A program made the translations under genes and the position numbers. The notes beneath the pieces are model-generated. The model saw only the letters and a list, made by a program, of their open reading frames with translations, was not told the DNA's origin and did not search any database. A stretch of DNA of 64,000 nt, from positions 5,330-69,329 of the forward strand of contig JAHJHC010000032.1 in assembly GCA_018824145.1 (NCBI GenBank), in the 5' to 3' direction. Shown here one piece after another: positions 1 to 57,533 of this stretch (positions within the stretch are counted from its first letter, which is position 1; each line of letters starts with the position of its first letter). This DNA is from Candidatus Omnitrophota bacterium. GTDB taxonomy: Bacteria > Omnitrophota > Gorgyraeia > Gorgyraeales > Gorgyraeaceae.

Positions 1-1445
1 AAATCTTTGGCAATCGGCTCTTTTAACTCTTCAGGAATTTTCGTATCTTCATATTTACATTTCGGACAAATCAACCTTATTAAACGCTGTGCAATAAATG
101 CCTCTACGCTCGAAGCTACCAGATACGGCTCAACACCGATATCTACCAATCTAGCAATAGCACTGGCAGCATCATTAGTATGAAGCGTAGAAAATATCAG
201 ATGTCCTGTCAAGGCAACACGAATAGCAATCTCAGCAGTCTCTGAATCCCTGACCTCTCCCACCATTATCACATCAGGATCGTGTCTTAGGATACTACGG
301 AGGCCGCGGGCAAAATCCAAACCGATTTCCGGCATAACCTGCATCTGGGTTATACCCGTAATCTCATATTCAATGGGGTCTTCTATAGTAATAATCTTAC
401 GTTCCTTAGTATTTATCTTGCTTAAACAGGCATACAGCGTCGTAGTCTTTCCGCTTCCGGTAGGGCCTGTAACAAAAATAATACCATGCGGTTTCATAAC
501 TAATCTCTCAAAGATCTGCTGATCTATACCTGAAAGCCCCAATCTCTCCAGACCAAAGAGCATCTGGGTAGGAAGGATCCTTATCACTACACTCTCCCCA
601 AAAGGTGTCGGTATGGTAGATATCCTCAAATCAAGCACTTGTTCCTGAACCCTTACAACTGCCCTGCCATCCTGCGGAAGACGGCGCTCTACAATATTTA
701 AATTAGACATGATCTTAATACGTGAAATTATGGCGTTTAAGAAACCTTTTATCCCCTGCGGGACATTGGCATCATAAAGCACACCGTCTATTCGATAACG
801 AAAATATACCTTCCCTCTATACGGCTCGATATGGATATCAGTGGCCCGTTTTCTCCACCCCTCTAAGATAATCTGATTAACCAGTTTTATTACAGAGGCG
901 TCTTCAGCTAATTTTTCAATATCTTCTACTCTTTCCTGGGAAATTTCTTGGGCACTTTCTTCAGACTTAAATCCCTGCTGCGAGTCAATACTCTCCAATG
1001 TCTCAGCTGCAGTCCCATAGTATCTGTTTAAGCCATCCGTTATATCCCTTGAGCATGAAAGGACCAATTCTATATCATAACCCAACTGTGTCCTTATCTC
1101 ATCCTGCGTCTTTATATCTAACGGATAATATGCCGCGATAGTCAAAGTCCTGCCTTTGATCTTTATAGGCAAAAATTTATAATATGAGGCGATCTTTACC
1201 GGGACCTTTTCTAACACAGCCTTATTAATGAGGCTTTTCTGCAGATTAAGATAACGTACTTTTAATTTATCTGCCAGGGCATTTAACATATCTTCTTCGG
1301 GGAGGACGCCTCTGGCGATTAAAATTTGTTGGAGGTTGCCGCCTGAGGCATCTATCTCCTTAATAAGTGCATCCAACGTCTTTTTGGAAACCAGCCCTTT
1401 CTCAACCAATGCTTCATACAAAAGTCTATCGTACTTCTTAAGCAT
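1..1445 (-). CDS. Type II secretion / type IV pilus assembly ATPase, GspE/PilB family. The start is in the window and the C-terminus runs off the window edge.
   Basis: The reverse-complement translation begins MLKKYDRLLYEALVEKGL at the ATG at 1445..1443, and the gene has a GspE_N-like N-terminus. Reverse-complementing 430-470 gives MKPHGIIFVTGPTGSGKTTTLYACL, a classic Walker A of secretion ATPases. The gene is absent from the ORF track because its stop lies outside the window. Confidence 0.85.
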   Translation of the reverse strand, partial: MLKKYDRLLYEALVEKGLVSKKTLDALIKEIDASGGNLQQILIARGVLPEEDMLNALADKLKVRYLNLQKSLINKAVLEKVPVKIASYYKFLPIKIKGRTLTIAAYYPLDIKTQDEIRTQLGYDIELVLSCSRDITDGLNRYYGTAAETLESIDSQQGFKSEESAQEISQERVEDIEKLAEDASVIKLVNQIILEGWRKRATDIHIEPYRGKVYFRYRIDGVLYDANVPQGIKGFLNAIISRIKIMSNLNIVERRLPQDGRAVVRVQEQVLDLRISTIPTPFGESVVIRILPTQMLFGLERLGLSGIDQQIFERLVMKPHGIIFVTGPTGSGKTTTLYACLSKINTKERKIITIEDPIEYEITGITQMQVMPEIGLDFARGLRSILRHDPDVIMVGEVRDSETAEIAIRVALTGHLIFSTLHTNDAASAIARLVDIGVEPYLVASSVEAFIAQRLIRLICPKCKYEDTKIPEELKEPIAKD

Positions 1446-1448
1446 ATA

Positions 1449-1898
1449 TTATCTCCCCTGCACGTATTCCCGATACCTCTCGATAATATCTTTCATATCA
1501 TCTTCGGAGACCAAAACCAATTTCAACCTGGACCCCCATGTTTCTTCTTCAGCTTTTTTCAAACCCCAGGCATCTAACGGATTGGTTATCGCAACAGTAA
1601 CTGTATCACCATCTTCCTCAATAGGAAAGCATTTATAATCTAAGATCAATGAGGGGCTGAATTTTTTTACAAAGCCCCAATCAACATATTTATATTTTAT
1701 ACTAATAAACGGGATATTAAACTGTTCGGATAACACCCCTAATAAATCCCTTTCTTTGATCTCTTTTTTTTCTACTAATATTGAGCCTAAAAATTTCTTT
1801 GTTGTTTGTTGTTCCCTTAAGGCATCCTGTAATTGCTCAGACGTTATAAGGCCCTTCTCTACTAAACTATCACCTAATCGTTTCTGTTTCTTATCCAT
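1449..1898 (-). CDS. Stand-alone MshEN / GspE N-terminal-domain protein, a candidate c-di-GMP-binding adaptor.
   Basis: This is a 149-aa protein. The segment KRLGDSLVEKGLITSEQLQDALREQ matches the RLGxxLxxxGxIxxxxLxxALxxQ MshEN motif. It sits 3 nt upstream of the GspE-like ATPase gene. Confidence 0.6.
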   Translation of the reverse strand: MDKKQKRLGDSLVEKGLITSEQLQDALREQQTTKKFLGSILVEKKEIKERDLLGVLSEQFNIPFISIKYKYVDWGFVKKFSPSLILDYKCFPIEEDGDTVTVAITNPLDAWGLKKAEEETWGSRLKLVLVSEDDMKDIIERYREYVQGR

Positions 1899-1910: not shown

Positions 1911-3323
1911 TTATTTCAATGCTCCTATAAGATAAAATTCCTGTTCCGACCTATTGTCCACCCTTCCATCTATTATCCTCTCACATCCTTCCAACGTCTC
2001 GTTCACTGTTACATAAGCACCTTTTTTGCCAGTATACGACTCTGCTACAGTAAACGGCTGCGTAAGAAAATATTGCAACTTTCTGGCACGTTCGTAAATT
2101 ATTCTGTCTGCAGGGGATAATTCATCGATTCCTATAACCAATACGATACGGCGCAACTCTTCATATTTCTGAAACATCTGAACGGCTGTATGAGCAATAT
2201 CTACATGGCGTTTTCCTACGATGTCGACATCAAGGTTGGAGCTTGATGATAATAAAGGATCGACAGCCGGATAAATACCTAGCTGAACCTTTTCACGGGA
2301 AAGGACCATCACGTTATCCATAAAGCTAAAAAGCACCACTACAGCAGGATCTGTCAGGTCATCAGCAGGAACATATACACATTCAATAGAAGTAATAGAC
2401 CCTCCTCCTTTTTGGGATGTCCTTATCCTTTCGTGAAATTCGCTTACCTCTGCCATCATTGTAGGCTGATACCCTGTCTCTGAAGGAACGCGGCCCATAA
2501 GTGTAGATGTCTCAGATCCGGCTTGAACATACCGAAAAATATTATCTACAAACAGCAAGACATCCTGGTTTTTCTTTTGAATGGCTTCTGCAAGGGTAAT
2601 CCCTGTTGCGGCTACTCCAAATCTAGCTCCGGGCGGTTCGTTCATCTGACCGAATACCATCTGCGTTTTTGAAAGGACACCTGATTCTGTAAGCTCATAG
2701 TAGAGTTCATTACCTTCACGAATACGTTCTCCTATTCCTGCGAAAACACAGGACCCTTCATGCATTTTTACGATTTTCTGAATAATTTCCAAAGTAAGTA
2801 CGCTCTTCCCCATACCAGCGCCGCCTAAGATCCCGGTTTTTGAACCTTTAACCAACGGAAAAAGAAGGTCGATAATCTTAAGCCCTGTTTCTATGACATC
2901 AAAGCTTTTTTTCTTTCTACCGCCCGTTCTGAGATAACTGCCCATATGAGTCTTGTGAATAGGCATTTTCTCAACACATTCAATTTTTCCTTTCTTGTCT
3001 ATAGGCTGTCCTAACACGTTAACCAGCCGGCCGTACATGCCTTCTCCAACAGGTATCTCTATACTCTTACCTGAATAATAAGCCTCTTGATTGCGGACTA
3101 TGTTAATCGTCGAGTTTATCGCAATACAGCGCGCAATATTCCCCGGCATGTGCTCGGAGACTTCCATAAAGACTTCTTCTCCATCAACTGTATGCGTCGT
3201 AACCAAACCAAATACATTGGGGACATCATCCTGGGACACAAACTTCACATCTACTACCGGGCCCTGGACTGAAATGACGCGTCCTACTATCTTTATATCT
3301 TTTTTATTTTTTTCCACGGACAT
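1911..3323 (-). CDS. atpD: F-type ATPase beta subunit.
   Basis: The protein has GGAGMGKSVL (P-loop), QMNEPPGARFGVAATGITLAE, YVPADDLTDPAVV, IYPAVDPL and a GIDELSPADR (DELSEED-like) segment, and aligns along its full length with F1 beta. Confidence 0.9.
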   Translation of the reverse strand: MSVEKNKKDIKIVGRVISVQGPVVDVKFVSQDDVPNVFGLVTTHTVDGEEVFMEVSEHMPGNIARCIAINSTINIVRNQEAYYSGKSIEIPVGEGMYGRLVNVLGQPIDKKGKIECVEKMPIHKTHMGSYLRTGGRKKKSFDVIETGLKIIDLLFPLVKGSKTGILGGAGMGKSVLTLEIIQKIVKMHEGSCVFAGIGERIREGNELYYELTESGVLSKTQMVFGQMNEPPGARFGVAATGITLAEAIQKKNQDVLLFVDNIFRYVQAGSETSTLMGRVPSETGYQPTMMAEVSEFHERIRTSQKGGGSITSIECVYVPADDLTDPAVVVLFSFMDNVMVLSREKVQLGIYPAVDPLLSSSSNLDVDIVGKRHVDIAHTAVQMFQKYEELRRIVLVIGIDELSPADRIIYERARKLQYFLTQPFTVAESYTGKKGAYVTVNETLEGCERIIDGRVDNRSEQEFYLIGALK

Positions 3324-4152
3324 ATCTCCCTGAAATCAGTTCGCGTAGAGCTCTATCAGCAAGCTCGTGACGGACACGAAAGTATTCTAACCTTACTTTT
3401 TTGTCTTCATCCTTCAGCTTCTCGCTCGATTCATCCAGGTGAATATAGCGGGCTGAAAATTCCGCTAGCCGGCTTACTCCAAAAATATAATGAAGCTTCT
3501 CTCCCATCCAAAGGTATACCAAATACTCGATCATATCTCCCGGCCTTGACTCCAGGATTATATCCTGATTTAAAGCGGGAATGGCCTTGCTTACATCAGG
3601 GGGGCGAAAAGGCAGAAAAGATACTGTTTCTATATGTTGCACTCCAAAGGAAACAGCTCGCGGATGTACCACTTTAACCGTATCAAACTCATTGGCCAAT
3701 GCCTTTTGGAAAATATAATCGCGCAGTTGCATTGCCTGTGTATGCCTTTCCTCATCCTGAATCCCGGGAAAGTTTACTGTCGAGTAGCCTTGTCCACTAA
3801 CATACATTTTTCCGCGCGCCCCGATAATGACCATTGTCGTAGGCATTTTCTGGGCCTCCTCAAGAGCTGCGTTTATAACTTTCATATTAAGTCCGCCCAA
3901 AAAACCGGCATCTGTGGTTATAGCAATAATAGCCTGTGCTCGTCCTTTGGCTTTCATGAAAACATGATTTACCGTATCCATATCAATATCTTTTAAAAAA
4001 CTTTCAATCGAAGGAAAAAATTCCTTAAAAACATTCAATCTCTTTTCCATCATATAATACTGTGCAATAGCAATCGATTTCAGCGTCTCAATCAAAAGCG
4101 ACAGCCCTTTATTGAATTCCATGTCTTTTTTTACGCTGATTAATGTCCTCAT
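3304..4152 (-). CDS. atpG: F-type ATPase gamma subunit.
   Basis: The 282-aa protein has AIITTDAGFLGGLNMKV (compare STDRGLCGGLN) and a C-terminal helix KVRLEYFRVRHELADRALRELISG typical of gamma. It lies between the alpha and beta genes. Confidence 0.75.
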   Translation of the reverse strand: MRTLISVKKDMEFNKGLSLLIETLKSIAIAQYYMMEKRLNVFKEFFPSIESFLKDIDMDTVNHVFMKAKGRAQAIIAITTDAGFLGGLNMKVINAALEEAQKMPTTMVIIGARGKMYVSGQGYSTVNFPGIQDEERHTQAMQLRDYIFQKALANEFDTVKVVHPRAVSFGVQHIETVSFLPFRPPDVSKAIPALNQDIILESRPGDMIEYLVYLWMGEKLHYIFGVSRLAEFSARYIHLDESSEKLKDEDKKVRLEYFRVRHELADRALRELISGRYVRGKK

Positions 4153-4153: not shown

Positions 4154-5674
4154 CTATTTTATCTTTCCTGCAATATAATCTTTCAGGCAGCTTTCCAGCT
4201 TTTCAGCCATTTCCGTACTCATTTTTTTTGCAGTACGAAGATCACTAAAGAAAGAGGGGTGTACTTTTGTAATATACGGGCAGATATCCTCTCGGAATTG
4301 CAGGATCTGTTCTTTCGACAGGTTGTCAAGGAGCCCAAGATTCAAGGCATTCAAATAAACGATCTGGGCTTCCATTAAAACAGGCTGATTCCTATACTGA
4401 TTGATAAGGGCATTGATCGCATCTCCCCGTTTTATCTTGTCCTGAGCATCCTGTGAGATCCTGCCAGACTGCATCTGGGTCACTCTTAAAAGTTCTCTAT
4501 ACTGAATATAGTCCAGCCTTAATGTTTTACTGACCGAACGCATGGCATTCCACTGGGCCTTATTCCCGATACGAGAAACGGACAACCCAAAATCAATAGC
4601 AGGCATAAAGCCTTTCTTGAAAAGTTCGGTTGCAAAATAAAGCTGGCCGTCTGTCATCGAAACAATGTTAGTAGGAATATATCCGGTAAGGTCTCCCTGA
4701 AGGATCTCAACAATGGGGAAATATGTCATTGTCCCGTTCCCCCTTTCTTTGCTTAGATACCCCGCTCTTTCCATAAGCTGGGAATGTATATAAAAGATAT
4801 CCCCGGGATAAGCTTCACGGCCGGGAGCCCTTTCCAGGAGCAAGGATAATTGGCGATAGACCCAGGCATGCTTTGTAAGATCATCAAAGACTACAAATAC
4901 ATCCTTCCCATTGTACATGAAATATTCTCCCAGCATACTCGCAGTATAAGGGGCCAGATACTGCTCGCCGGTAGATAAGGACGCTACACCCGAAACAATA
5001 ATAGTGTATTTTAAGGCATCATGTTCTTTGAGTAAATCCACCACCTTGACAAGGCTGGAATACGGTTTTCCTATTATACAATAAATACAGATAACATCCC
5101 TTCCTTTTTGATTGAGGATGGCATCCATAGCAACCGTTGTTTTTCCTGTCTGACGGTCACCGATTAAGAGCTGGCGCTGGCCTTTGGCAGTAGGAATAAT
5201 CGCATCAAGGATCAATGTGCCTGTTTCAAATGTTTTATCAACAGGCTGCCTTTCCATAACCCCGGGAGCAACACGAAAGACAGGAAAGCTGTCATTAGCC
5301 TCAATCGGCCCGAGCCCGTCCTGAGGCATGCAAAGCCCGTTTACAATCCTGCCCACGAATGCATCACCTACAGGAAGGTCCAATGACTTGCCCTTGTTAT
5401 AGATCTCATCGCCTGCGCTAATATCCGCAACATCACCTAAAACAAGGACCTGGATATCTTCTTCAGTAAAGCCTATTACAAGGCCCAGTGTGCCATTTGC
5501 AAATTCAACGATCTGCCCGTTCATGCAAAAAGGCAACCCTTTGGCTATCACGACAAATTGCCGTACGGATTCAACGTACCCGACCTCTCTTACATCAAAG
5601 CCCGTTTGTGGTTTATCCATATCTTCTTTCTCACTACTCATCAGCCTCTTTTCCTGAGGCGTCAAGCATGGCAA
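4154..5674 (-). CDS. atpA: F-type ATPase alpha subunit. The true start is probably the internal Met near 5641.
   Basis: The protein has IGDRQTGKTTVAMDAILNQ, LLLERAPGREAYPGDIFYIHSQLMERA, PTNIVSMTDGQLYF and LSVSRIG, all hallmark F1 alpha motifs. Confidence 0.9.
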   Translation of the reverse strand: MPCLTPQEKRLMSSEKEDMDKPQTGFDVREVGYVESVRQFVVIAKGLPFCMNGQIVEFANGTLGLVIGFTEEDIQVLVLGDVADISAGDEIYNKGKSLDLPVGDAFVGRIVNGLCMPQDGLGPIEANDSFPVFRVAPGVMERQPVDKTFETGTLILDAIIPTAKGQRQLLIGDRQTGKTTVAMDAILNQKGRDVICIYCIIGKPYSSLVKVVDLLKEHDALKYTIIVSGVASLSTGEQYLAPYTASMLGEYFMYNGKDVFVVFDDLTKHAWVYRQLSLLLERAPGREAYPGDIFYIHSQLMERAGYLSKERGNGTMTYFPIVEILQGDLTGYIPTNIVSMTDGQLYFATELFKKGFMPAIDFGLSVSRIGNKAQWNAMRSVSKTLRLDYIQYRELLRVTQMQSGRISQDAQDKIKRGDAINALINQYRNQPVLMEAQIVYLNALNLGLLDNLSKEQILQFREDICPYITKVHPSFFSDLRTAKKMSTEMAEKLESCLKDYIAGKIK

Positions 5675-6377
5675 CTTGTCCCAATATCTTATGTCTCAAG
5701 CTGCCGTCCAAAACAAGACTCCCTATTTCAACAATAATCCCTGCTACGATTTTAGGATCCAGTTCTTCTTTTAAGTCCATATTACTTCCCAAAAGCTTAT
5801 TCACTTTCTTTAATAATTCGGCACGATCACTGTCACTCAACGGGAAAGCAGTCAAAACTTTTATTTCCTTGATCCCTTTTATTATCTTTAATTGACCTAT
5901 CTTCTTAAAGCCGTTTTCAATAAGGTCACGGACCCATCGCGAATGAACATCCTGCTTGAATTCCTCAGGCAAGGTATTCTGAATTGACTCACATGCCTTA
6001 TTGATTGCCTCTTTTGCTATTCTTTCATCTAATTCAGCGATAATGACCTTGCGAGACCTGTCTGCCTGTTCAACAATCTCCTCACTTCGGACTCGCGCCT
6101 CTTTTAATATCTTATCCCTTTCTGCCGCTGCCTGATTAGCAATATCTAAACGTTGTTTTTCTGCCTCATTACGGGCCACGGACAACAATTCTTCAGATTT
6201 ACGTTTTGCCTCCTCAAGCCGTCTATTTATATCCTTTTCTTTTTTACTATAATCCTGGTTTAATTCTTCAAGATGTTTTGTAGCCAAAACGACATTTCTA
6301 TTCAATATATGTTTAAACATATATATAAGCCCTATAAATATAACTATCTGGAACAATACCAAGGAAATTATAAGCAT
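5634..6377 (-). CDS. F-type ATPase b subunit fused to a delta (OSCP) C-terminal domain.
   Basis: It has an N-terminal TM helix and a long charged coiled coil typical of subunit b. The C-terminus VLTAFPLSDSDRAELLKKVNKLLGSNMDLKEELDPKIVAGIIVEIGSLVLDGSLRHKIL resembles the delta C-terminal domain. At 247 aa it appears to lack a full delta N-terminal helical bundle. Confidence 0.6.
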   Translation of the reverse strand: MLIISLVLFQIVIFIGLIYMFKHILNRNVVLATKHLEELNQDYSKKEKDINRRLEEAKRKSEELLSVARNEAEKQRLDIANQAAAERDKILKEARVRSEEIVEQADRSRKVIIAELDERIAKEAINKACESIQNTLPEEFKQDVHSRWVRDLIENGFKKIGQLKIIKGIKEIKVLTAFPLSDSDRAELLKKVNKLLGSNMDLKEELDPKIVAGIIVEIGSLVLDGSLRHKILGQVAMLDASGKEADE

Positions 6378-6398: not shown

Positions 6399-6614
6399 TT
6401 ACCTTGCGAACAACTGAAACACTACCAATATTGCAATAATTGCCAAGGCCTGAGCAAAGACCAGGGCTATCACTAATGCCGTAAAAATCTTAGGGGCAGC
6501 AGACGGATTCCTGCCCAATGCGCCTATACTGGCAAAACACCCTGCAGCAAACACCGCACACGGCCCCAAGATACATACTGAAAAAATTAAAATAAGTGAA
6601 ATATTACGATCCAT
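6399..6614 (-). CDS. atpE: F-type ATPase c subunit homolog lacking the ion-binding carboxylate.
   Basis: The 71-aa protein is a two-helix hairpin with an RNP loop (compare RQP). Helix 2 reads LVFAQALAIIAIL and aligns to LVEALPIIGVV of canonical c subunits. Q55 is encoded by the CAG codon at 6452..6450 on the minus strand, which I verified from the DNA. Confidence 0.65.
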   Translation of the reverse strand: MDRNISLILIFSVCILGPCAVFAAGCFASIGALGRNPSAAPKIFTALVIALVFAQALAIIAILVVFQLFAR

Positions 6615-6861
6615 TGATTATAGGAGATGATGATTCCTCGACGACAATAGTTACTTTATTCTGATCGACTTTAACGATCCCTCTCTGTATATTAAATCTC
6701 TCTTCATCTATAAACAACGCACCTGAAATAAGCCGGCTTAAAATACGTTTGTGAAACGGTATTATCTCAAATACACCTTGCTCTCCAGGAACAATCACAC
6801 TCTGTGCCTTCCCTTTAAAAATAATCTTTCTGGGTGTTAATACATCCACATCTAATTGCAT
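6604..6861 (-). CDS. atpC: F-type ATPase epsilon subunit, N-terminal beta-sandwich domain only.
   Basis: The 85-aa protein contains LDVDVLTPRKIIFKGKAQSVIVPGEQGVFEIIPFHKRILSRL, which resembles the epsilon N-domain. It overlaps the c gene by 11 nt. Confidence 0.55.
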   Translation of the reverse strand: MQLDVDVLTPRKIIFKGKAQSVIVPGEQGVFEIIPFHKRILSRLISGALFIDEERFNIQRGIVKVDQNKVTIVVEESSSPIINGS

Positions 6862-7983: not shown

Positions 7984-10900
7984 TTACTGCATTAGTACAA
8001 TAGGATCTTCAATCCCGCCAATTTTACTTTCAAAAGTCTGCAACACTACATCAACTGTTCCATTTATCGCGTCTGTCTTATTGCGGATCTCTTTTACAGT
8101 AGGTGATTCTGTCAAGGCCTCTTCTAAGATTGTGCCCATATCATACCCTTCCTCACCAGCTAAGGCCTTTATCCTATCCGAGACCTCATTAATTGCATTA
8201 GTGATTACAGCAGTAGGACCTTCTTTCGACATAATCTCAGGCAAAGCATCTACGGAACTCTTAAGATTCTTTAGTGTGAGCGCAATATTTATACTATCAC
8301 CGGAAATCAATACTGCCTCTAATGCCTTTATAGCCTCCAATGCCTTCTTGGCTGCACGTGATGCCTCTGGAGCTGCGGCTGCAAGTCCTGCTACTGTAGT
8401 AATACTCATGGATTCAACCATCCCTGAACCTACCAAGACTGTACCAGTCTGCTGTTCAGTGACCATGTAGGTATAGGCCTTACCAGCAGGGAAGTTTCCG
8501 TCAGCTTCAACCTTTGCTATATACATTCCCGGTGTATCCTGGGTCATAAGTAGCCCTTCTTCAATAGCATCTCCGTCCCAGGCATAAATATATACCTGCG
8601 GCAAGAGATTCGGCAACCCTATACATTGTAGAGTAATAGTATCTCCTGTTAATGCCGGATCAGGAAATACTGCAACACTCCACTCGTATTTTCCAACCAT
8701 ACCTGAACCAGTGACCAGTCCGCCTGTCTCTGATTCTTGGATAATGAAAGAGTATGCTTTACCTGCTTCAAAACTATCATCAGCTTCAAATTCATACACA
8801 TAAACTCCGTCGCTACTCTCTTTCATTATACTACTATAGACAAGGTTACTATTAACATCGTAAATATCAATTACAGGGGCTAACCCAGGTTGACCTTGGC
8901 AGTTTATGGTTACGGTTTCATTGGTCAATACTGGATTAGGGGACACACTAGCACCCCACGAATATTTCAATGCAGTTTCCATAAGGGTTTCACCTGCTTC
9001 TACAGCCATATCAGCACCTTCCTGCAAGTCCTCAATCGCTGATTGTGTCCTTGTCTCAAAACTGGTCAGTGTCATATCAACCATTGCAATCATCTCATCA
9101 GTCTTAGAATCAATAAGGGCTGACTGTTCATTCATCTTTGTCTCAATAGTCTCAGTCTGTGCTGAAACTATATCTACGACTTCATCTGTCTTTTGATCAA
9201 GAAGGATAATCTGTTGATCCATAGAAGCCTGTATCTCGCCGCTAATCACTGACATTGGTTTATCTAACACATAGTCGATCTTATCGTCCATGTTTTCAAG
9301 AGAGTCTTCCATAGATGCCATGGCAGTAGGTATAGTAACAGTGAATGATACAGGCGTTGTGAAGTTACCTCCAGTACCAAGCACAATGTAAGTCTTTACA
9401 GTATATACCTTACCTGCCTGCAAGGTATCATAGGCAGTTCCTCCGGAAGTATGAGATGTCGGAGTCCAGGTCTGTGGGAAAAAACCAGCAAAATCAATAG
9501 GAGTCTGGATTTCACCTGTCTTATAAGTTGCGCAATCTGCTATATTCTCAAACTGGAAGCGTTCCACTTCTTGCTCTAAATCAGGATCCCAACTCGTACC
9601 AAGCCAGATATCAACAGTCGACGGTATATCTTCATAGAAGTAGTGCTTCTCAGGATCCCCTGCTTGCGGTGTATCTTCTTCCTGTACTAAGATTGTCTTT
9701 CTCTTGATCTGTTCAAATCCATCGTAAATCTTTACATCAACAACCAATGCCCCAGGAACCAATGAACCATCTCTTTCCAGCCATGAAGTTATATCCAATC
9801 TGTCAGTCTCTACATCATAAGAAAACTCTGAGTACGCCCTCCAGATATGTACAACCAATGTTTCCATAGTACGGAAAATCTTCCTGTCTCCCCATACTTT
9901 ACCTTCTTCGTCCACTCCGGTAAAATATGTTACTTCAATTGGACCATAATCTTTGTGGGTGAAGGTTGCTGTCCAATTGTCAGCTGTAACATCATGGTTT
10001 TTGGGCGAACTAACACCTGTTGCGTCCCAGCCAGGCCATCCACTTGTTGAGACTTCACTTACTGTCAACCCATTTATATGCTGGTTCGTAATTAAATCTC
10101 GTATATCCCATGTAATCGTATAGTAATCTATCTTCATTGTAGTGGATACACCAGCTGGAAAACCTGGATCAACATATGGACCCTCTATAAATACGTCAGG
10201 GTCATTGTGGTCATATATACGGATCTTTACAGTATCTGAACGATCATTAGCAATCTTCCAGTCAAATGTACCAGTATTATCCCAGTCTAATGCCTGCTGC
10301 CCTAGATCATTTTTAATAAGAATCTGATTGTCAGGCACGCCGTCTGCCGGGTCTATATCCGCGAAATTATCTTTTGAATAGTATATATCTACTTTAGGTA
10401 TAGTACCAAATGTTGTCCAGGTAACTTCACGTACTTCATTTGTAACCCAGCGACACTCATAGTCTAAAACTTCTGCCGGATCCCCGCCTTCTTTCAATGC
10501 TATGGCAGGAGAAGTAAGAGTGAAATCACCCTGAATCTTAAATTCGCCGGAATCGTCATTTACAATGCTCTCCAACAGAGTCCTTGCATCAGCTACTTTT
10601 ATCACGCAGGTAGGTGAGATATAATCCTCTACTATCCATGTGAATGAATGCGTTGCACCCGGATTCTGAGGATCATATACACCGTTGGTTACGATACCTG
10701 TATTAGCAGTGCCAGGATCATTATCTTCATCTATAGGAACAAACGGGCCTCCTACACCGTTCTGCGATATGGTTATCTTCACCTGCGGCATTGTTCCGCC
10801 CCATTCCCATGTAATGTCGTGAGAACTGGCAACTGCCCATTTTTCATCTGCAACAGGTGCATGAGTTATTATATAACCTATTATCTCAAAACTTTGGCTT

Positions 10901-13900
10901 TCGCCTATAATATCTGTCTGATCACCTACTGGAGAGGTTCCGTCTCTTGCATCAGCTACTCTGATAATAACATTTGCACTCGCCTCATCAGGAACCGTCC
11001 ATGTGAAAGTATGCTCTGCGCCTGGTCCGCCTGCGCCTGCGCCGTTAGTTACTAAGCCGGTATTTGCAGTACCAGGGTCATTGTCCTCGTCTACAGGATT
11101 AAAAGGCCCTGTAAGTCCATTGGTAGAATAAGTAATCTCAACTTCAGGAATAGTCCCTACCCAATTCCATTTTATATCCTTATCCTGTCCTATTTCCCAA
11201 GAAGGACCTCCTACAGGTGCATTAATCGTAATCTCACCCATGATCCTGAATAAGCCTGATGTATCAACTGCATCTGAATCCAATGAACTTTCTACGCGCA
11301 GTTTTACAGTATCCCTGGCAATATCATCAGGTACTGTCCAGTCAAATGAACCTCCACTTGCTCCATTAGCCACTATACCAGTATCTGCAGTCTGAGGATC
11401 ATTATCTTCATCTATAGGATCGAATGGTCCTGTATCACCGTTTAAAGAATATGTTATCTTTACATCCGTTACTGTACCGGTATTAGTCCAGGTAATTTGG
11501 TACGAATCACCAACAACCAGGTCCTGGCCCGTAATATTAGGATCTATTGTAAACTTGGCGCTGATCTTTGCATACGGTGCTGTAGTAAAGCTGTTTCGGT
11601 TCGGAAAACCAGTTTGCGCATTAACAGTATGAGGTGCAACACCATAACAATCTGAATCGTCATTGGATTCTACCTTGATCTTTAACTGGCTAGAAATGAT
11701 ATCAGGAACCTTTGGTACCCATAACCATTCTTCGTCTGTCGCAGGAGTTGAACTTCCTGATATAGCTGTCCATGAACTACCGCCGGTGAGAGAATAATAC
11801 ATAGTCACGTTGCCAAGAGTAGGCACTGTTGTATCTGTAATTGTCCACGTGATATATCTATTGGTATCATTAACAAACCACTGTTCATCACTCACTGGAG
11901 AAGTAACAATTATATCAGGCATAATTTTGAATGGACTAGCTGAATCCTTATAAGCATCTGTATCAGTCGGATCATCATAATTCGGATCTTCTACCCGCAT
12001 TATGAGCCCCATGTTATCTGTAATCAACCTATAATCAAGCGTAGTAGGTATGGTCCAGTCATAAATGCCTGCAGTACCAGATGACGGTTGAACACCAATC
12101 ACATACTTTATTGTAGGATTGGCTTGTAGATACACAGTGAGTTTTACTGCTTCCTGGGTCCTCGCTGTATCAGAATATGTTATACCTGTCTTAGTCCAGG
12201 AGATAGTCTCAGTATGTCCCAGAATCCATTTCTGTCCGCCATTAGGTGAAATACTAGTAAAGTTGACCCGGATAGTGAACGCATCAGAGATATCATAGAC
12301 ATCTGGATCATCATGTTTAGAGATACGGATTCTCATACTTTCAAATCCGACTGCCTCCGGCGGTATATTCCAGCCAAAATTACCTACGCTCCCGACAAAT
12401 TGCTCGGACGAGGTTATAACCTTTATATCCGTCGGGTCCTGCGGATCGCCAGGATCAGTAAAGTCCGGATTATTATATGCATATTCTATTTTGACTTTAT
12501 CAAAACTACTCGGGCCGTATCTCGTCCATTTGATAGTCCCCTGAGTACCAGCCTCCCAGACATATCCAGTCTCCGGTTCCTCAACCACAACCCTTGCCAT
12601 AATCTTAAACGGATTATCTGTTACATCTTTGACATCCGGAAATGCTGTATTATGGTCTTTTACCCGTATAAGCACATTCTCTGCAGTTAAAGTTATTGGT
12701 ATATCCCACGGATATTCTTTAGCACCGCTATTACTATAATTGGTTATTATATCTACCCAATCATTAGGATTGGATGGCGGTGTTGAACCAAGGTAATAAG
12801 CTATGTCTACATTAGTAATATTACCCTGCGAAGTCCATTTTACATAATGAGTTAAATCACATCCCCATTTTTCCATGTCAAGAAAATCAGGTGCTGTACC
12901 GCCATTGGGTTCAGTTACAGTAATTGTACCTTGTATAGTGAAGTCAACTGAAGTATCAAAACAATATGCAGAGTAAGTAGCATTCGCATCAGAGACACGG
13001 ATCCTATAGGTATGTGTAAGGTCTATACTATTAGGGATCGGCCAATCATAACTATTAGTAGCATCATTGGTAATCCCTGATATAACTGTCCCTGGCCATG
13101 TGTCATACGGAGCATCTTTCTTATATTTAATATCTACTGAAGTTGCTATATCTTCAGAGGTCCAAGTTACAGCATGCGTATTACCGGCTATCCACGGCAC
13201 TGTTCCGTCAGGAGTTAGTACAGTGATGTTATCTATTATCCAGAATGCTGTATCTGATTCATCCTTTACTAATTCTTGAGGATCGCTGGGATCCTTAAGC
13301 CGGATAAAGCAGTTAGTTGATCTACCTTTATCAGTAGGCACTGACCAGGAGTATTCTGTAGCACCTTCCACATAAGTCATATATTCATAATTTTCTTCTA
13401 CGTCCCCTGTTGTAGATAAGTAAATATCCACTCTGGAAATCGGACCGATCATAGTCCATATAATCTTTGAATCCTGATCAAATTGACCTGCCTTCAATTT
13501 GCTGCTAGAGTCATTAGGCTGCGTTACTGTTAACTGTCCGTGTACAGTAAACGGAGCTGATTCAGTAGTAGCACTGGAATCCTGTGCGTCACTTATTTTA
13601 ATCTGTGCCTCGTAACTTATTGCATTAGGAACTGTCCAAGGATATTGATTATTATTACTTATGGTTGAGCCGTCATTTACAAAATCAAAGTTATCCTGAT
13701 CATCTAAGCGGTATCGTATATACACATTGAGAATGGTACCTTTTGTGGTCCATTCTATAGTCTTTGCACTATTAGCCAGCCACCTGTCAGTTGAAATTGG
13801 ATGTAAGAATGTGAATCCGCCCCGCACAATGAACTCGGGTGAAAAACCTGTTACAAAAGATTTTTGATTCGTATCTTTTATCCTTATTATTGTATGCGTA

Positions 13901-16900
13901 CTGGCTACAGTAGTTACTGAATTCCAAGTATATGTGTTTGCATCCTGAGATACTGCCAAAGAAGGTTCAATTTCTGTCCAGGGCCCGGATAGACCATTAC
14001 TAGAAAATTCTATCTTAACATTAGTTATAGCGCCGGAAACCGTAAAGTTAATATCTTCCTGCTCCTGGCAAATCCACGGGTCTCCTGCTTGAGGCCGCGT
14101 AACTACTATATTAGCAATCTTAAAAACAGGCGAAGTATTTGTCACTTCATTATACAATTCATCTGTCACACGCACTACTACATTACTACTAATTGTAGGA
14201 GGTACGGTCCAGGGATAGGATTGGTCACTGGCAGTAATATCCGTATCAATGGTTATCCAATCTACGCCAGTACCTACACCGTCATAATCATAGTCTAATG
14301 TTACCTCAGGTATCGGCCCTGTTGTTGTCCAGGTAATATTCTTCTGCGCGCCGGAATCCCAAACCTGATCCAGCTGCGGGCTGGTAATCAAGAGCTTACC
14401 TCTTACGTAGAAAAAGTCTGAAACAGCCGCTATAGTAGGCTTTGTAGCGTCTGAATTAACTATCCTGACTTTCACTGAATCGCTTATGACGCTGGGAACG
14501 CTCCAGGTAGTTGAATTCTCTGTTAAATCCTCTCCGTCAGTAATATACTGATATGCACCGCCATTTATCGTAGGTTCTGACCACAATACGTCAACAAGTG
14601 GGATATTGCCTGTCTTGGTCCAGGAAATTGTCTTCTGATCCAATACATACCAGGTTTCTCCGCCTACTGGTGCACCAAGGACTATCTTACCTGTTATAGT
14701 GAAATTACCTGACTCATCTTTTACGTCATTAGGCTTGGTAGTATCTGCTATCCTGACATTGATCTCGTCAGACATCTGATCCGGGATCTTCCAGGTGAAA
14801 CTACCGTCTGAGGCAGAAATATTACTTGCCTGGCCTACAGGATCAACCTGCGGGTCTTCCCCTGCTGCCCAACCTAGTACCCAGCCAAAATCTCCGCCAG
14901 CTACTGAATATTCAATATTTACATTATTTACAACGCCTGTTACTGTCCACTCTATATCGTGATTATCATTTACTACCCATGCATCACTGGTAGTAGGACT
15001 GTCAAGGGTTATCTTTGCCCTTACCTCAAACGAGTTAGATGTATGTTTTGCATCTGCGTTATCCGGATCACTGATCTTTACCAAACACGTAGTTGATGCA
15101 ACATCACTCGGTACAGTCCATGAATAAGCACCTGAATTGGAAACAAACCCTGTACCGGGATTTCCAGCGCTTACATAGTCAATATTACGCCAAGCACCGC
15201 CATTATTGCTTGAGAATTCAAGTTTCGCAATAAGTATATCAGCTCCGTTTGGCGTCCAGGTTATGGTGCGACCTGAAGCGGAAATAACATAAGCTGGTAT
15301 AGCGTCTAACACAAATCCGCCCCTGATCTTAAAGGGAACTGATTCGTCTTCTACTTTATCAACAGCTGTCTCAGTATCCTCATCTGTTATCTTGATCTTG
15401 ACACTTTCAGATACGTGATCAGGTATTGATGACCAAGTATAGGATTGACCTGATGCTGCTACAGGCATATTTGAGGCATCTACCAGATCATATCCCTGGC
15501 CATAGTCATAGTAGATGTTTACGAGCCCTATACTTCCTGTATAGGACCAGGTGATGTTCTTATCTGTTGTCCCGACTTCCCAATTAGAATTTGAATCAGG
15601 TTTTACTACAGTTATGCTGCCTATAATGTCAAAACTCGGAGAATCGCCGTAAACACTGGAATTGACGTTATCAACTACTCTAACCACTACGTCATCACTT
15701 ATGGCATCAGGAATATTATCCCATGTGTAATCACTGGTAGCATCTACATTACCGGATACATCCAGGTCTTCAAACGAGCCGCCGTCTACACTGTAGTATA
15801 ACTTCACATAGCTAACCTGTTCAGAACCATTTAGGCTCCAGGAAATAGTGTGTCCATCTGAAAGGACCACTAAATTGCTGTCTTCTACAGGTTGTGAAAC
15901 TGTTATTACAGGCCTTATAGAGAATGGATATGTTGATACGCTATAGACATCAGTGGCTGCACCAGTATGATGCAGAGTATCTGATACTTTTATATAGCAG
16001 TTTTCTGAATTTTCGTCTTCTACTGTCCATTGATATGTATTGGAGCCATCTCCGTAAGCACCTCCGCCGTCATGATCCAGTATAATATCAATGTAATTCC
16101 CACCAGCTGAGGTCTTATATTGTATATCTACATTAGTCACGTCACCTATAGCTGTCCATGTAATATTTTTACTTTGACCTTTAAGCCAAATCGGTTTTGG
16201 AGTTTGCGAATCAGGGGCAGTGACATCCAATGAACCTACGAATTTAATATTATAGGGAACTACTGCCTTCACATCAGAATCATATTCGTGGCTGATTCTG
16301 ATCTTCACCTGATCATCTATGTCATTAGGCACGGTAAATGGATACACCCTTCTGACACCATGCGCAGAGTTAGCCACTGAAGTGAAATAATTAGTCTCCA
16401 GTTCATCCGCAAATGCATTTGTAGAGTATTCTATCTTAATCGGCCCGAATGTCCCTGTGGGTGTCCATTCAATATCATACGAAGTATTAACTGACCACAT
16501 AAGACCGCTCTCTATAGGAGACTCCCAAACAATGTCACCTTCTATCTCAAACGCCTCTGAATCATCAGTTACTTCTGTATTATCCACATCAGTTATCCTT
16601 ACTATAGCTGCCTTAGTATCATCAGTGATAGAATCAATCGCAGGGGCCCATAGATTATATGAACTAGACCCATACTCAAAATCCACTGTTGCTATATTTG
16701 TCCACGGTGCAGATCCGGTCTTGGAGAATTGAATTATCACATCACCCATATCTGCTGTCCCTAATGTAGTCCATTCTATAGTAAAGGCAGTTCCTACTGT
16801 CAATACATCCGTTGTCTCAGGTTCTGTAACAGTAATGCCGCTTTTCATCATGAAGCTATCAGACTCACCACATGCAGCTGCCAATGAAGCATCTGCTACC

Positions 16901-19900
16901 TTGATCATTGCCTGATCTTTAGTCAAAATATCTTCATCAGTAGGAATTGTCCAAGGATACGAAACAGGAGGCGTAGCAGTATATGAAGAGTTAATTACAT
17001 ATCCTCCGTACGGAGGATACGTTACTCCGTCGTCATTAGAATATACTATTTCGAATACATTAGGCGAACCTACTGTACCTATAAGACCTGTTACATTCCA
17101 CTCAATAAGATTACCTGAAGTCCCAATAACCCATTTGTCATTTGAGTCAGGTGAAGTAACAGTTATTACTGCGCGTATCTCAAATGTAGCTGATAGGTCT
17201 ACTGCTGCAGCATTGTCAGGATCACTAATTTTAAATTGGCAGGCAACAGACTTAACATCTGTAGGCACACTCCATGAACAGCTCTCTGAGTTTGTTACAA
17301 GACCCGTATGACCGGTGGGATTAGTCTTGTAGTCAATATCGTGCCATGTAGTACCGTCAAAAAATTCAAGTTTTGCAATAGGAATCTGTCCCTGCAGGTC
17401 ATAATTTTCCCATTTAATAGTATATGGATCACCTGCTGAAAGCGTTGTAGGAAGCAGAGCATCATTGATGTCAAAGTTTCCTGCAATATGGAATGTCGGG
17501 GACTCGTATTTCGTATATGTTTGACGATCCGTATCAACATCCTGGATCATAATCTGAGTAGTTAGAGTAATATGAGGTCCGACACCGTCTATACCAGCAT
17601 CCGGATCATCAAATGTCCACGTATCAGGAGAACCTGGTACAGTACTCTCAGTCTTAAGGTATTGATAGCCCTCACCGTCATCATAATCTATAAGTATATC
17701 CACACTGGTCAATTGATTACCGTATGCTGTCCAGTTAACTGTCTTATTAGTCTCTCCTACAAACCAGTTAGCATCCTGGGCAGGAGATAAACCATAGACA
17801 ATCCTTCCAAGTACGCGGAACGGAGATGAATCTCCGTATACCTTGTCCTCGAATCCAGTATCTTTATCTCTTACTCTTATCACTGCCTGGTTATAGCTTA
17901 ATTGCAGCGGGGCAGTTATAGCTGAACAGGTTTCTTCGGTATTAACATTATCCAAAAGCAATGTACCGGGAAGCCCGCCTGTTCCTGTAGATGAATAGTA
18001 GATCTGCACAGTAGATATAAGATTATCGTCGGATATAATATCTTCTGTCCAGGTCACTGTCTGATTCTCTAATCCAGCCCTCCATATAGGCGGATTAGAA
18101 CCTTCGTCACCAGCTGAAGGAGTAATGGTTACTCCGCTTATTGTCGGGTATGCACTGAATGTACCTGCTGATTCACCTTCTGCCTTTGGCGAAGTCTGTG
18201 CGTCTCTTATCCGAATCGTGCAATTGTTGCTTTTAACATCAGGTATTTGTGGTACGTTATAGGTCTCTATATTACCGTCTCCTACTGTGGCTGTGCCGCC
18301 CACAGCTAAATTATGCTCTGTTGTTCCATCATAGAGATAGATATATACTGTACTCATGGTATCTCCATAAGCACGCCATTTGACCTGTCTATTTGTATCT
18401 CCTACATTCCAGTCTATATCAAACGGCGCATAGTCTACTGTCGGAGTAAGTACAGTTATCTTACCTCGTATGTACATTGCGACTGAGGCAGCGCTTATTA
18501 CACTGCTATAATCTGTCTCATTCGCATCTCTCACCTTAAATTTAGTCGTATCCGTAAGATCAGCTGTTACCGGTATGGTCCACTGGTAAGTACCGCTTCC
18601 TACTGGGGTTGCAACTCCATTAAATGCACTTACATTAAACGGATCCAGATTTGTATCAACTGTATATTCATCTCCTGTAAAATTCCCTGAAGGAGATGCA
18701 ATGATCTTTACCTTATTTATCTCACCATGGTTTACATCCCATGATATGGCCTTTTGTTCTGTTATCCTCCAGGTAGTTGTCGTAGCAGGTGCGGTTAAGG
18801 TAAGAGCACCTCTTACCTTAAAGGCATCGCTTAGTACAAATGTCCCGTCAGTACCGGACTTTTCATAATTTGTATCTTCTATTAAAATCTTATAGTTTGG
18901 TATAAGTGGTGTTTCTGGAATTATCCATGCTGAGGCAAGTGACTGCTGTAAAGCCGCAGTTGTTGAAAATGTGCGGTCAGCAACTATTACATTCGAGAAG
19001 GTCACACCGTCTGTCGCATATTTTACACTCACTGCATTTATACGGCCATCCCTCTGCCAGGTTATCTGCGTACTATCTCTACCTACAAATCCACTGGCTA
19101 ATGTACCTGCAGTCGGAGTAATTATAGTCAGCTGTCCTTTTACTATGAAATCCAATGATTCATCTACGACATATGTGCCGAATGTTGAGGTATCTTCTAT
19201 CTTTATAAGTGAATCATCACCAGCATCCACCCTTGTTATATAATCCCCTGTTGCTGGATTTGTCGGGATAGTCCAATCGTATGAACCCTGGTTCGGAATA
19301 GTATCATCACCATCTGCATCACCGTCACCATCATCATCTTCAGCAGCCATTGAAGCAACTAGCTCTGTCCAGCCACCCCCTGTGTCTCTGGAATATGATA
19401 TCTTTACATTAGTTACAGGACCGTACACATCCCATGAAACAGTATTTGCTGTTGCGCCGTCTGCTGTCCAAATATCACCTTGACTAGGTGCAGTAACTTC
19501 TACATTACCGCATATCACAAATTCATTCGATTCTTTTGCTGTACTCGGTTGAAGCGGCGTACTTGCTGTAATCCTGAACTTTATATCTTCTGCAGCAAGA
19601 TTTAAAGGTATTGGATTATCATGTGCACCAGTCGTATCCCATGTATATGTGTTCTCATTAGCTACTCCTGAACCATGTTTATTGTTAGCAACTCCATCCT
19701 TTATCAATAACCATTCTCCACTGGCACCTGAATCTTTATTCCAGTATTCCAGTTTTACCGCGGAAACACTGTCACCGATTGTATTCCATTTGATTACAAA
19801 GGACGGCGTCAATGAATCTACATGGAAAGGCTCTCCTCCTGTTGGATATGCGAATGTAAAGGAAGAAGTTATCTTAAATGCATCTGATGTAGTAGTAGTT

Positions 19901-40008: not shown

Positions 40009-40515
40009 TTAATCGCTTATTAAGACCTCGAGCTGATTCTCAGATTCTTCTTCGGAGTCAGGCTCAGGTCTTTTTATTCTTTTTGCAGCCCTCACAAAAC
40101 TAATACTTTTTGCGAGCCATTCTTCAGTAATCCTGTTTCCTCTGTTTGGCTTAGTTACCTCATGGTAAGTCACCTTCACAGCATCGCCGACTTTTATATC
40201 GTTTAAACCCTGTTTATGCACCACCTTTGTATCTTCATCAATAAGAAAAGAATAATCAGTATTTGTCTCGGCATCACCTACGGCAATAACCGTGGGATTA
40301 AATCTGGGTGTAAAATAAATAACCTCTCCTACCAACTCTTTTTCTTTAATCATCTCTTTCACAGGAGACTGTTCGCCTTCTCCTTGCTCTTCGTCGTCTT
40401 CCTGAGCAACTCCTGCCCCTATGCCTCCTAAGAGAAAAACCGCTATTAAAAATATGAGACATACAAAAATCTTTTTCATCCCGCTATCCTCCTTACTTTT
40501 AAAAATAATATTCAT
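40009..40515 (-). CDS. Small secreted protein of unknown function, located immediately upstream of and co-oriented with the giant gene.
   Basis: The 168-aa protein has a signal peptide (KKIFVCLIFLIAVFLLGGIGAGVA), an acidic linker, a beta-rich domain and an acidic C-terminus. There is a 15-nt gap to the giant-gene ATG. Confidence 0.6.
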   Translation of the reverse strand: MNIIFKSKEDSGMKKIFVCLIFLIAVFLLGGIGAGVAQEDDEEQGEGEQSPVKEMIKEKELVGEVIYFTPRFNPTVIAVGDAETNTDYSFLIDEDTKVVHKQGLNDIKVGDAVKVTYHEVTKPNRGNRITEEWLAKSISFVRAAKRIKRPEPDSEEESENQLEVLISD

Positions 40516-44101: not shown

Positions 44102-44108
44102 TATAATC

Positions 44109-47652: not shown

Positions 47653-47654
47653 CG

Positions 47655-55314: not shown

Positions 55315-56254
55315 ATCTATTTGGGTTAACCAGTCTATTTAAGAATGGTTTTATAAAAAACAATCCGAATAAAATAGGGCAGATTACATTAACAAAAGAT
55401 AGTAAAAGACCGCTTCCTAAAAGCCTATCTGGAACCGCATATTCTGAAAAAAATACTAGAATAGCTGATTCCCTGGTGCCTAATCCCCCGAATGTTATTG
55501 GTAAGGATGCGAGAAGCAGAACAATAGGGGTAAAAATCAAAAAGGCCTCAATGGGTATTTCTATGCTGAATGCCTTAAAAAGAAAAAAGGCGTTTATCAA
55601 TTTGCATCCTTCAAACCCTAAAGAATATATAAATAAAGTAACTAGCGATTTTATACTAAACTTTTCGATAAGGACTTTGAATATTTCTCTAGGCCGAGGG
55701 CTCATCTTTCTAGAGTTCTTAATAAAATTAATAAGTATTGAATTTCTAAAAAGTATTATTATAAAAAAGAAAACTAAAAATATTACGGCAAAATAAATCT
55801 TTTGATATAGCTCAAGTTTATAGAAAAACCAGCCGACAGAAATAAAAGAGATTAAAGCAAAAAAGCTAAAACTATATACTAATATTACGGAACTTATGCC
55901 CCTGGCATAAGAGAAATCGTGTCTTTTGTGTAAATACGCCACCATAACGGATTCTCCGATTTTGAATGGAAGGATACCTTTTATAGGTGCACTACCCATG
56001 CGTAGTATAAGGGTCTCAAAAAAGGGGATATTACACCCTAATAGTTCAAGTATTTTTTTATACCTTGCCGGAGAAAAACATGTATGCGCTATAAATGAAA
56101 AAAAAATTGCTCCAGCAAGGAATCTAACCTCTATCTGTGCCAATAGGTTCTTTACTTCAGAGAACCGAATCTTTGAAAATATAATAGTAAAAACAGAGAT
56201 GGTTATTACCCAGGTGATAATAAATCTCAGTAATTGTTTTCGCTGGTTAATCAT
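55301..56254 (-). CDS. Flippase-like polytopic membrane protein (lysyl-PG-synthase TM / YbhN-like domain).
   Basis: The 317-aa protein has about 8 TM helices and a C-terminal LPITFGGLGTRESAIL motif. It sits between the GT9 and TMTC genes. Confidence 0.4.
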   Translation of the reverse strand: MINQRKQLLRFIITWVITISVFTIIFSKIRFSEVKNLLAQIEVRFLAGAIFFSFIAHTCFSPARYKKILELLGCNIPFFETLILRMGSAPIKGILPFKIGESVMVAYLHKRHDFSYARGISSVILVYSFSFFALISFISVGWFFYKLELYQKIYFAVIFLVFFFIIILFRNSILINFIKNSRKMSPRPREIFKVLIEKFSIKSLVTLFIYSLGFEGCKLINAFFLFKAFSIEIPIEAFLIFTPIVLLLASLPITFGGLGTRESAILVFFSEYAVPDRLLGSGLLLSFVNVICPILFGLFFIKPFLNRLVNPNRYVRT

Positions 56255-56257
56255 ATT

Positions 56258-57499: not shown

Positions 57500-57533
57500 C
57501 TTTTTTTATCCTTTTCGTACCCAATTAAAAATT

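Follow-up and report, generated by a model that had tools for sequence, protein, structure and literature searches.

To our knowledge, every characterised rotor ring of the F, V or A type needs both a carboxylate in the membrane and an a-type stator. The only well-studied non-chemiosmotic relatives of F1, the F1-like X0 complexes of Mycoplasma, have dropped the c-ring entirely. The gliding motor of M. mobile and the MIB-MIP partner of M. mycoides are examples (PMC3369863, PMC12994834), and their clusters comprise seven genes without c, b or delta, including those for a 12-helix membrane protein and a 19 kDa cytoplasmic protein (PMC12994834). In the Omnitrophota, Seymour et al. 2023 (PMC10066038) described 'non-respiratory' or 'symbiotic' F-type ATPase clusters beside type-4a pilus genes in all classes of the phylum; they classified the clusters by the phylogeny of alpha and beta, and used these trees for a comparison with the type 2/3 ATPases of Mycoplasma. 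Here we analyze one cluster of this kind on a 64,000-nt stretch from a Candidatus Omnitrophota bacterium (assembly GCA_018824145.1, contig JAHJHC010000032.1, positions 5,330 to 69,329; hereafter the window). Its c subunit carries a glutamine in place of the ion-binding carboxylate, and no subunit a was found in its operon.

By its gene content and neighbourhood, the window cluster belongs to the Omnitrophota set of PMC10066038. It comes from the same phylum as the published loci and, like them, has homologues of alpha, beta and gamma within 10 kb of pilus genes, in genomes where giant open reading frames (ORFs) are common. The pilus-type neighbours here are a MshEN-domain protein and a PilB-like gene, with PilC and pseudopilins in orthologous loci. 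The main text of that paper is silent on subunit a, subunit c and the c-ring, and a term search found 'subunit a' and 'subunit c' nowhere in its supplements. Apart from Seymour et al. 2023, our literature search returned no account of an F-ATPase lacking a with a carboxylate-free c-ring, and the ATPase goes unmentioned in the giant-gene study of West-Roberts 2023. The locus type is already known, whereas, as far as could be found, an a-less, carboxylate-optional c-ring with a fixed link to a giant-protein anchor has not been described.

The gene at the center of this analysis and the codon that distinguishes it are:
6399..6614, minus strand: divergent F-type c subunit, 71 aa, two-helix hairpin
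6450..6452, minus strand: CAG codon for Gln55, at the site of the canonical ion-binding Glu/Asp

The ORF encodes MDRNISLILIFSVCILGPCAVFAAGCFASIGALGRNPSAAPKIFTALVIALVFAQALAIIAILVVFQLFAR and lies between the epsilon and b/delta genes inside an atp-like operon, its start codon and the epsilon stop overlapping by 11 nt. Individual family models place it below their thresholds: Pfam ATP-synt_C (PF00137) matches with an E-value of 2e-4 at 21.9 bits, under the 24-bit gathering cut-off, and the NCBIfam c equivalogs give 17-19 bits, all far under cut-offs of 85-135. A precomputed PF00137 match is present in many of its close relatives. A profile built from 38 family members and run against solved c subunits found its top match in Chloroflexus 9itj_H (E 8.9e-7, '...iGiaFtEALAi...'), with further matches to chloroplast, Spirulina, mitochondrial and V-type c chains. 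The AlphaFold2 (AF2) model is a helical hairpin (mean predicted local distance difference test, pLDDT, 90; helices 3-35 and 37-70) joined by an invariant polar loop, R35-N36-P37, and the best 50 Foldseek matches listed from the PDB are all ATP synthase c-subunit or c-ring entries, with template modelling (TM) values of 0.46-0.80. We mapped the window proteins by tblastn onto 85 related loci of up to 20 kb each, the shorter contigs showing part of the order, and epsilon-c-b/delta-alpha-gamma-beta is kept across them. Given the profile match, the fold matches, the RNP loop and the operon position, the ORF is, as judged from sequence and model, a genuine rotor-ring c-subunit homologue, as a preliminary description of this DNA had proposed. 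The same four lines of evidence rule out a generic two-helix peptide.

Read from the minus-strand letters, the codon at 6452..6450 is CAG and encodes Q55, 16 residues before the C-terminus. Column 55 of the family alignment falls on the ion-binding Glu of solved c subunits ('ialvfaEala' against 'iGiaFtEALAi', and 'LSLAFMEALTIYG' in the chloroplast chain). In the alignment to Bacillus PS3 c (1wu0_A, 72 aa), query residues 26-66 match residues 27-67 of the chain, so that Q55 falls on residue 56. The preliminary description had read this codon as CAG, equated Q55 with PS3 E56 at the same distance from the C-terminus, and placed a Gln at the essential carboxylate position, and all three statements are borne out. 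The window protein has Q55 where canonical c subunits have the helix-2 Glu or Asp that binds the ion and is the target of dicyclohexylcarbodiimide (DCCD), and its sole acidic residue is D2. Nor did the search for another acidic residue in the middle of helix 2, which that description had suggested, find one: neither the two helices of window c nor, at any other position, the helix cores of 194 distinct relatives contain a D or E, bar one truncated sequence. A carboxylate displaced by one turn is thereby ruled out.

Further parts of the canonical site are missing from window c. The other ligand positions of known H+ and Na+ sites are hydrophobic: in the profile alignment, the helix-1 ligand Gln28 of the chloroplast subunit falls on F22 and the helix-2 ligand Tyr66 on I60. 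The helix-1 GxGxGxG/AxAxAxA motif is likewise absent, the segment reading G17-P-C-A-V-F-A-A-G25 against GPGVGQGTA in the chloroplast protein.

Whether orthologues conserve the Gln, a question raised in the preliminary description, has a split answer: among the 194 distinct relatives, position 55 is Gln in 90 and Glu in 95, with Val (3), Ala (3), Gly (1), Ser (1) and Phe (1) making up the rest, and Asp, Lys and Arg never occurring. In related loci, Gln is written as both CAG and CAA at this site, and Glu as both GAG and GAA. The exchange can be the only difference between two proteins, as for L023 (Glu) and P0032 (Gln), which are identical over residues 1-69 save position 55; several other Glu/Gln pairs differ at just 3-4 sites. 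Fitch parsimony on a neighbor-joining (NJ) tree of concatenated alpha and beta from 61 loci, which is only approximate, places Glu at the root and requires at least 15 state changes at c55. The window and its nearest relatives on this tree, L006 and L007, fall in a Gln clade, and its closest relatives among the best protein matches (P0001-P0003, P0005-P0007) are all of the Gln type as well.

This variation is found in a protein that is otherwise tightly conserved. Public data hold more than 300 relatives of c, from organisms that, where named, are nearly always Omnitrophota, and 320 species-representative genomes encode a family member. In a profile search of a representative library, the family is compact (28 clusters at E <= 1e-10), and the remaining matches, canonical or concatenated c subunits in which Glu is kept, have no bearing on the locus. 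By median identity to the window proteins, c (71.7%) ranks above beta (69.1%), alpha (66.5%), epsilon (58.4%), b/delta (45.3%) and gamma (44%). No other protein of the operon is as well conserved, and outside site 55 c is under strong purifying selection. The c ORF, 62-80 codons long, is intact throughout the 85 related loci that were read, apart from one truncated case. The loop I30-A-L-G-R-N-P-S-x-A-P-K-I-F-T-A is essentially invariant across the family, with I30, L33, G34, R35, N36, P37, S38 and P41 invariant in 86 sequences; F11 and L63 are also essentially invariant, as is Q67 bar one truncated ORF. In canonical enzymes, this loop is the docking surface for gamma and epsilon.

The profile search also returned fused multi-hairpin c polypeptides of 1139 aa (15 matches), 631 aa (8) and 968 aa (9), and two-hairpin relatives of the family of 138 and 140 aa. 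All of the fused proteins keep Glu, and those of 1139 and 631 aa carry an archaeal-type PETFSK...VLAEAL motif. The multi-hairpin and related library proteins (P0223, P0334, P0252, P0262, P0232, P0235, P0202 and P0211) lie outside the window.

The genes that surround c in the window are:
7984..39993, minus strand: giant ORF, 10,669 aa, one N-terminal membrane helix
6903..7715, minus strand: sp270, 270 aa, directly upstream of epsilon
6604..6861, minus strand: epsilon, N-terminal beta-sandwich only, 85 aa (Pfam ATP-synt_DE_N, 2.5e-15, residues 3-76)
5634..6377, minus strand: b/delta fusion, 247 aa (Pfam ATP-synt_B, residues 2-131; OSCP, residues 166-231)
4154..5674, minus strand: F1 alpha (NCBIfam atpA, 525 bits, above the 484 cut-off)
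3304..4152, minus strand: divergent F1 gamma, 282 aa (Pfam ATP-synt, 1.5e-28)
1911..3323, minus strand: F1 beta (NCBIfam atpD, 550 bits, above the 463 cut-off)
1449..1898, minus strand: small MshEN-domain protein, 149 aa, directly after beta (Pfam MshEN, 1e-10)
1..1445, minus strand: N-terminal part of a PilB/GspE-type ATPase (MshEN and T2SSE, Walker A GPTGSGKTT), running off the window

No subunit a, as a chemiosmotic F1Fo would have, was found in the operon, the 64-kb window or the conserved block of the 85 loci. Pfam scans of every sizeable window ORF gave no ATP-synt_A (PF00119), and hydropathy gave each of the unannotated window ORFs one N-terminal hydrophobic segment; these look secreted, and none is a-like. 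Across the 85 loci, the order is fixed: the C-terminus of the giant ORF, sp270, epsilon, c, b/delta, alpha, gamma, beta and the MshEN protein, followed in the relatives by type IV pilus genes. This order is identical whether c carries Glu, Gln, Val, Ala, Ser or Phe, and the gaps within the block are short, leaving insufficient space for a polytopic a of ~25 kDa. Within the b/delta and sp270 helices, there is no membrane-embedded Arg and no difference specific to the Glu types. Two places that might have hidden a subunit a were examined and rejected: a 1.7-kb insertion between c and b/delta in L069 (1350-3030) contains a pair of soluble ORFs (149 and 281 aa), and a gap in L032 holds no credible ORF. 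By eye only, the two L069 ORFs look like nucleotidyltransferase/HEPN-type toxin-antitoxin genes.

Despite this, Glu persists at c55 in about half of the related loci, in which there is no room for a. Because the a-less gene order is shared while about half of the loci keep Glu, the stator seems, from these sequences, to have been lost first, leaving the carboxylate free to change, to Gln many times and to Ala, Val, Ser, Gly or Phe occasionally. The preliminary description had taken the two losses to go together. In the window both are indeed missing, but a strict linkage does not hold, as about half of the a-less loci retain the Glu; its view that the machine is not ion-coupled is supported by an a-less gene order in which the carboxylate varies freely. 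Among canonical c subunits, it is the carboxylate that does not vary. In this family, its former site is the only place in c where charge varies freely, and the comparison shows that selection no longer maintains this mid-membrane position of c as an acid when a is absent. At the genome scale, a 2026 preprint covering 176 complete Omnitrophota genomes found most to be without a complete F1Fo, and reported subunits of V/A-type ATPases in 70-99% of class Gorgyraeia, one small order excepted.

The F1 head, by contrast with the ion path, appears to be a working one, since its catalytic residues are invariant and alpha and beta pass the atpA and atpD cut-offs. Alpha matches F1 alpha chains in the PDB at 1e-134 to 1e-144, its P-loop is conserved and its arginine finger is invariant in 61 loci, as are the P-loop Lys, the Glu and Arg of GERxRE and the Walker B Asp of beta. 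These residues are also intact in loci with Val, Ala, Ser or Phe at c55, and the window has the catalytic alpha3beta3 of a chemiosmotic F1Fo (P-loops, catalytic Glu and Arg finger). Homologues of epsilon, gamma, b and delta are present yet divergent, under the NCBIfam cut-offs, with only the C-terminal part of delta. Gamma reaches 69.6 bits against a cut-off of 194, and the NCBIfam epsilon models, of ~130 positions, match over the first ~80 only, suggesting an epsilon without the regulatory C-terminal domain. In the b/delta protein, a single membrane helix at the N-terminus is followed by a b-like coiled coil and then by the C-terminal portion of delta/OSCP; the protein is covered nearly full length by the NCBIfam model alt_F1F0_F0_B, under cut-off, and is presumed to be the peripheral stalk.

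The MshEN protein follows beta in 64 of the 85 loci examined. Its domain family suggests a candidate c-di-GMP-dependent regulator of the ATPase/pilus block. Full-length orthologues of the PilB-like gene in L001 and L004 carry MshEN, T2SSE and PilZ domains, and are followed in both by T2SSF and Peptidase_MA_2 genes and in L004 by pseudopilin genes. One metagenome-assembled genome (MAG), STD1_64, contains two copies of the block from giant ORF through MshEN, on separate contigs (L008 and L010), both with a Gln-type c.

Between the giant ORF and the ATPase genes stands sp270, in which a signal peptide, an immunoglobulin-like beta-sandwich and a three-helix bundle are followed by a single membrane helix and a short tail in the cytoplasm (AF2 model, pLDDT 87.7), a layout that predicts a type I topology with the large domain outside. 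It has no Pfam or NCBIfam family match, and fold searches were uninformative. The window protein is 100% identical to NCBI KJ957_01525, from a Candidatus Omnitrophica MAG. We found 78 homologues, and in an alignment of 34 sequences the membrane helix is nearly invariant, with T216, W217, F226, F236, T237, W238 and Q241 invariant. In 43 of 77 loci, no stop interrupts the frame over more than 150 codons upstream of sp270, in most cases as far as the locus edge, and in these loci sp270 probably forms the C-terminal end of the giant ORF, in frame with it; in the remaining loci, the window included, it is a separate gene. This alternation between fused and separate forms is what ties sp270 functionally to the giant protein, as a putative membrane anchor beside the ATPase genes. 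The last ~800 residues of the giant ORF itself are 26-67% identical to the matching region of related loci.

The interpretation that we favor, and consider moderately probable, is that of an ATP-driven F-type motor that has lost ion transport and has kept its c-ring as a membrane rotor. F1 would hydrolyze ATP, and gamma, epsilon and the c-ring would turn against alpha3beta3 and b/delta without moving ions, for which the lack of subunit a leaves no path; the ring would serve as a membrane-embedded rotor or bearing. Consistent with this, the module keeps intact its catalytic sites and b/delta stalk along with a rotor interface formed by gamma, the epsilon sandwich and the c loop. With no stator arginine to encounter, a ring Glu would remain protonated and uncharged in lipid, and Gln would mimic that state, which would explain why Glu and Gln exchange freely while Asp, Lys and Arg do not appear. 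Because an unloaded rotor would be futile, the torque must have an outlet. It would be put to mechanical use, the likeliest load being the giant surface protein by way of the sp270 membrane helix; the adjoining type IV pilus-like apparatus, alone or together with the giant protein, is a second candidate, and the MshEN protein may provide control by c-di-GMP. The motor probably burns ATP for mechanical work beside the giant protein and does not make ATP.

In a more specific form of this idea, which we regard as quite speculative and rather improbable, the sp270 helix would sit inside or against the carboxylate-free c-ring, and F1 would twist, rotate or winch the ~10,000-residue surface protein. 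Such an arrangement would resemble that of Voa1, Ac45 and the (pro)renin receptor, single helices of which lie inside V-ATPase c-rings. If true, it would be a rotary mechanical actuator derived from an ATP synthase, used in attaching to, moving on or attacking host cells.

Several considerations weigh against a motor freed from ion transport. We infer rotation, ATPase activity and load alike from sequence, and only gene order, fusion and helix conservation link the c-ring with sp270, the giant protein or the pilus. About half of the c proteins keep Glu and ~95% have either Glu or Gln, which suggests that some constraint, for a long polar side chain, remains at site 55 and is not explained by pure loss of function. 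Horizontal transfer has been reported within the phylum, and together with the roughness of the NJ tree this makes the number of independent switches uncertain. Finally, the search for subunit a covered at most 20 kb per locus, so that a gene elsewhere in the genome is possible.

The strongest competitor, although we think it unlikely, is a static anchor or export ATPase, in which a c oligomer would be a dock and the F1-like head would act in the manner of FliI/FliH/FliJ on the export, unfolding or assembly of the giant protein or the pilus. The module does always lie between a giant secreted or anchored protein and secretion or pilus genes, there is no ion path, epsilon is without its regulatory C-terminal domain, and the homology of F1 with the flagellar export ATPase (FliI, FliH and FliJ corresponding to alpha/beta, b-delta and gamma) is established and has also been reviewed in a preprint. 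Alpha and beta are nevertheless canonical F1 subunits by NCBIfam and score far under the FliI/SctN cut-offs, and no protein-conducting function is known for an F-type c-ring. The retention of gamma, the epsilon sandwich and the invariant RNP rotor-interface loop also exceeds what a dock would need. We give distinctly less credence to an enzyme that is still ion-coupled, at least in its Glu types, through a non-homologous stator such as the sp270 helix, the b/delta helix or an a encoded elsewhere, with the Gln types using another site or having lost coupling recently. The inferred ancestral Glu, its survival in about half of the species, the long polar residue retained at the site by ~95% of sequences and the confinement of our searches to 20 kb or less per locus all leave room for it. 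It fits poorly, however, with a gene order that is the same for Glu, Gln, Val, Ala, Ser and Phe types, with near-identical proteins that differ just by Glu or Gln, and with the absence of Asp, which canonical rings tolerate. The sp270 and b/delta helices offer no Arg, Lys or other polar candidate, the helix-1 and helix-2 ligand positions are hydrophobic, and there is no second acidic residue.

Two simpler explanations concern the c gene itself. A decaying remnant of a former F1Fo operon, non-functional or untranslated, would account for the loss of the essential residue and for scores under the Pfam gathering threshold and far under the NCBIfam cut-offs for c. We hold this to be very improbable: c is the best-conserved protein of the operon, with an intact ORF in the 85 loci (one truncated), a loop signature shared family-wide and a presence in 320 species-representative genomes, and the overlap of its start with the epsilon stop suggests translational coupling. 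A sequencing or assembly error that turned a true GAG into CAG would need a single base change. The chance of this is negligible, because Gln is found in 90 of the 194 distinct relatives, from independent assemblies, and is written both CAG and CAA; the closest relatives of the window noted above are also all of the Gln type.

The remainder of the window lies upstream of the giant gene and is likewise encoded on the minus strand. A 422-aa ORF (40512-41780), whose first ~110 residues contain an IS200-like Y1 transposase domain, stands just upstream of the giant gene, the two being separated by a 168-aa protein of no family that has a hydrophobic segment at its N-terminus. The interval 42104-55314 is taken up by five large TPR proteins (617-763 aa), split by two adjacent B12-binding radical S-adenosylmethionine enzymes (46156-47652 and 47655-49130). 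Within 55301-63882 are genes for an LPG_synthase_TM protein, a heptosyltransferase-like protein of family GT9, a 498-aa fusion of cyclophilin and SurA, and a 620-aa secretin, as well as small ORFs that have a hydrophobic segment at the N-terminus. Of these, the prolyl isomerase and the secretin recall part of the conserved secretion locus described upstream of Omnitrophota giant genes (West-Roberts 2023).

Together, these findings describe a bacterial phylum that keeps a conserved c-ring in which a is absent and the carboxylate is free to vary, in effect a natural mutagenesis experiment. In the c family, what the ring does as a structure and rotor can be told apart from what it does as an ion carrier. 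The family also points to a rotary motor, driven by ATP and with mechanical output, located beside the largest bacterial proteins known, and gives a handle on how the ultra-small predatory or symbiotic Omnitrophota may use their giant proteins. Metabolic reconstructions drawn from genomes need correcting where they count these genes as an ATP synthase.

Compared with canonical c-rings (Bacillus PS3, chloroplast and Chloroflexus), the Omnitrophota protein has the same hairpin, a loop of the RNP/RQP type, the same place in the operon and the same register. It differs in Q55, in the absence of the helix-1 Gln and of the helix-2 Thr/Tyr partners, in GPCAVFAAG for GxGxGxG and in the lack of an a subunit, and it has new invariant residues at both termini (N4, F66 and Q67). 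A hairpin in which the ion-binding Glu is replaced is also found in c1 of Acetobacterium woodii (PDB 4BEM), where we take the replacement to be Gln, and in V/A-type c, which has one Glu per two hairpins; 4bem chains are among the weak PDB matches of our c profile. In such hybrid or duplicated rings, the other hairpins keep working sites, a is present and ions are still moved. The operon studied here, in contrast, has one c gene, which would give a homomeric ring without any carboxylate, and no a.

The N-ATPase (atpDCQRBEFAG) is similar in two respects. Its b subunit, of ~246 aa, matches the window b/delta protein nearly full length (TIGR03321, 41 bits), and its operon order is cyclically similar around c-b-alpha-gamma. 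Unlike the N-ATPase, however, the Omnitrophota module has no AtpQ, AtpR or a genes, whereas the N-ATPase c keeps a full Na+ site, and all of the alt_F1F0 models fell short of their cut-offs against the window (alpha 510.6 bits, cut-off 750.5; beta 474.7, 752; gamma 19.8, 282; b 41, 224.7).

The Mycoplasma type 2/3 F1-like X0 complexes (PMC3369863, PMC12994834) share with our module an alpha/beta/gamma/epsilon head without Fo a, a non-chemiosmotic nature and a position beside large surface proteins, and their partner protein MMCAP2_0577, with a signal peptide and C-terminal membrane helices, resembles sp270 in topology. The Omnitrophota module differs in keeping c and b/delta and in having no polytopic protein. 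The NCBIfam models for MMOB1660/1670 and MSC_0619/0618 failed, at 387.6 (cut-off 600), 417.8 (850), 298.8 (520) and 394.3 (570) bits. Because they did, the published 'type-2/type-3' label for the Omnitrophota clade derives from tree position only; alpha and beta score as canonical atpA and atpD. Beyond the description in PMC10066038, the locus adds a fixed gene order behind the giant gene, a missing subunit a, a c-ring with a variable ion site, a b/delta fusion and sp270.

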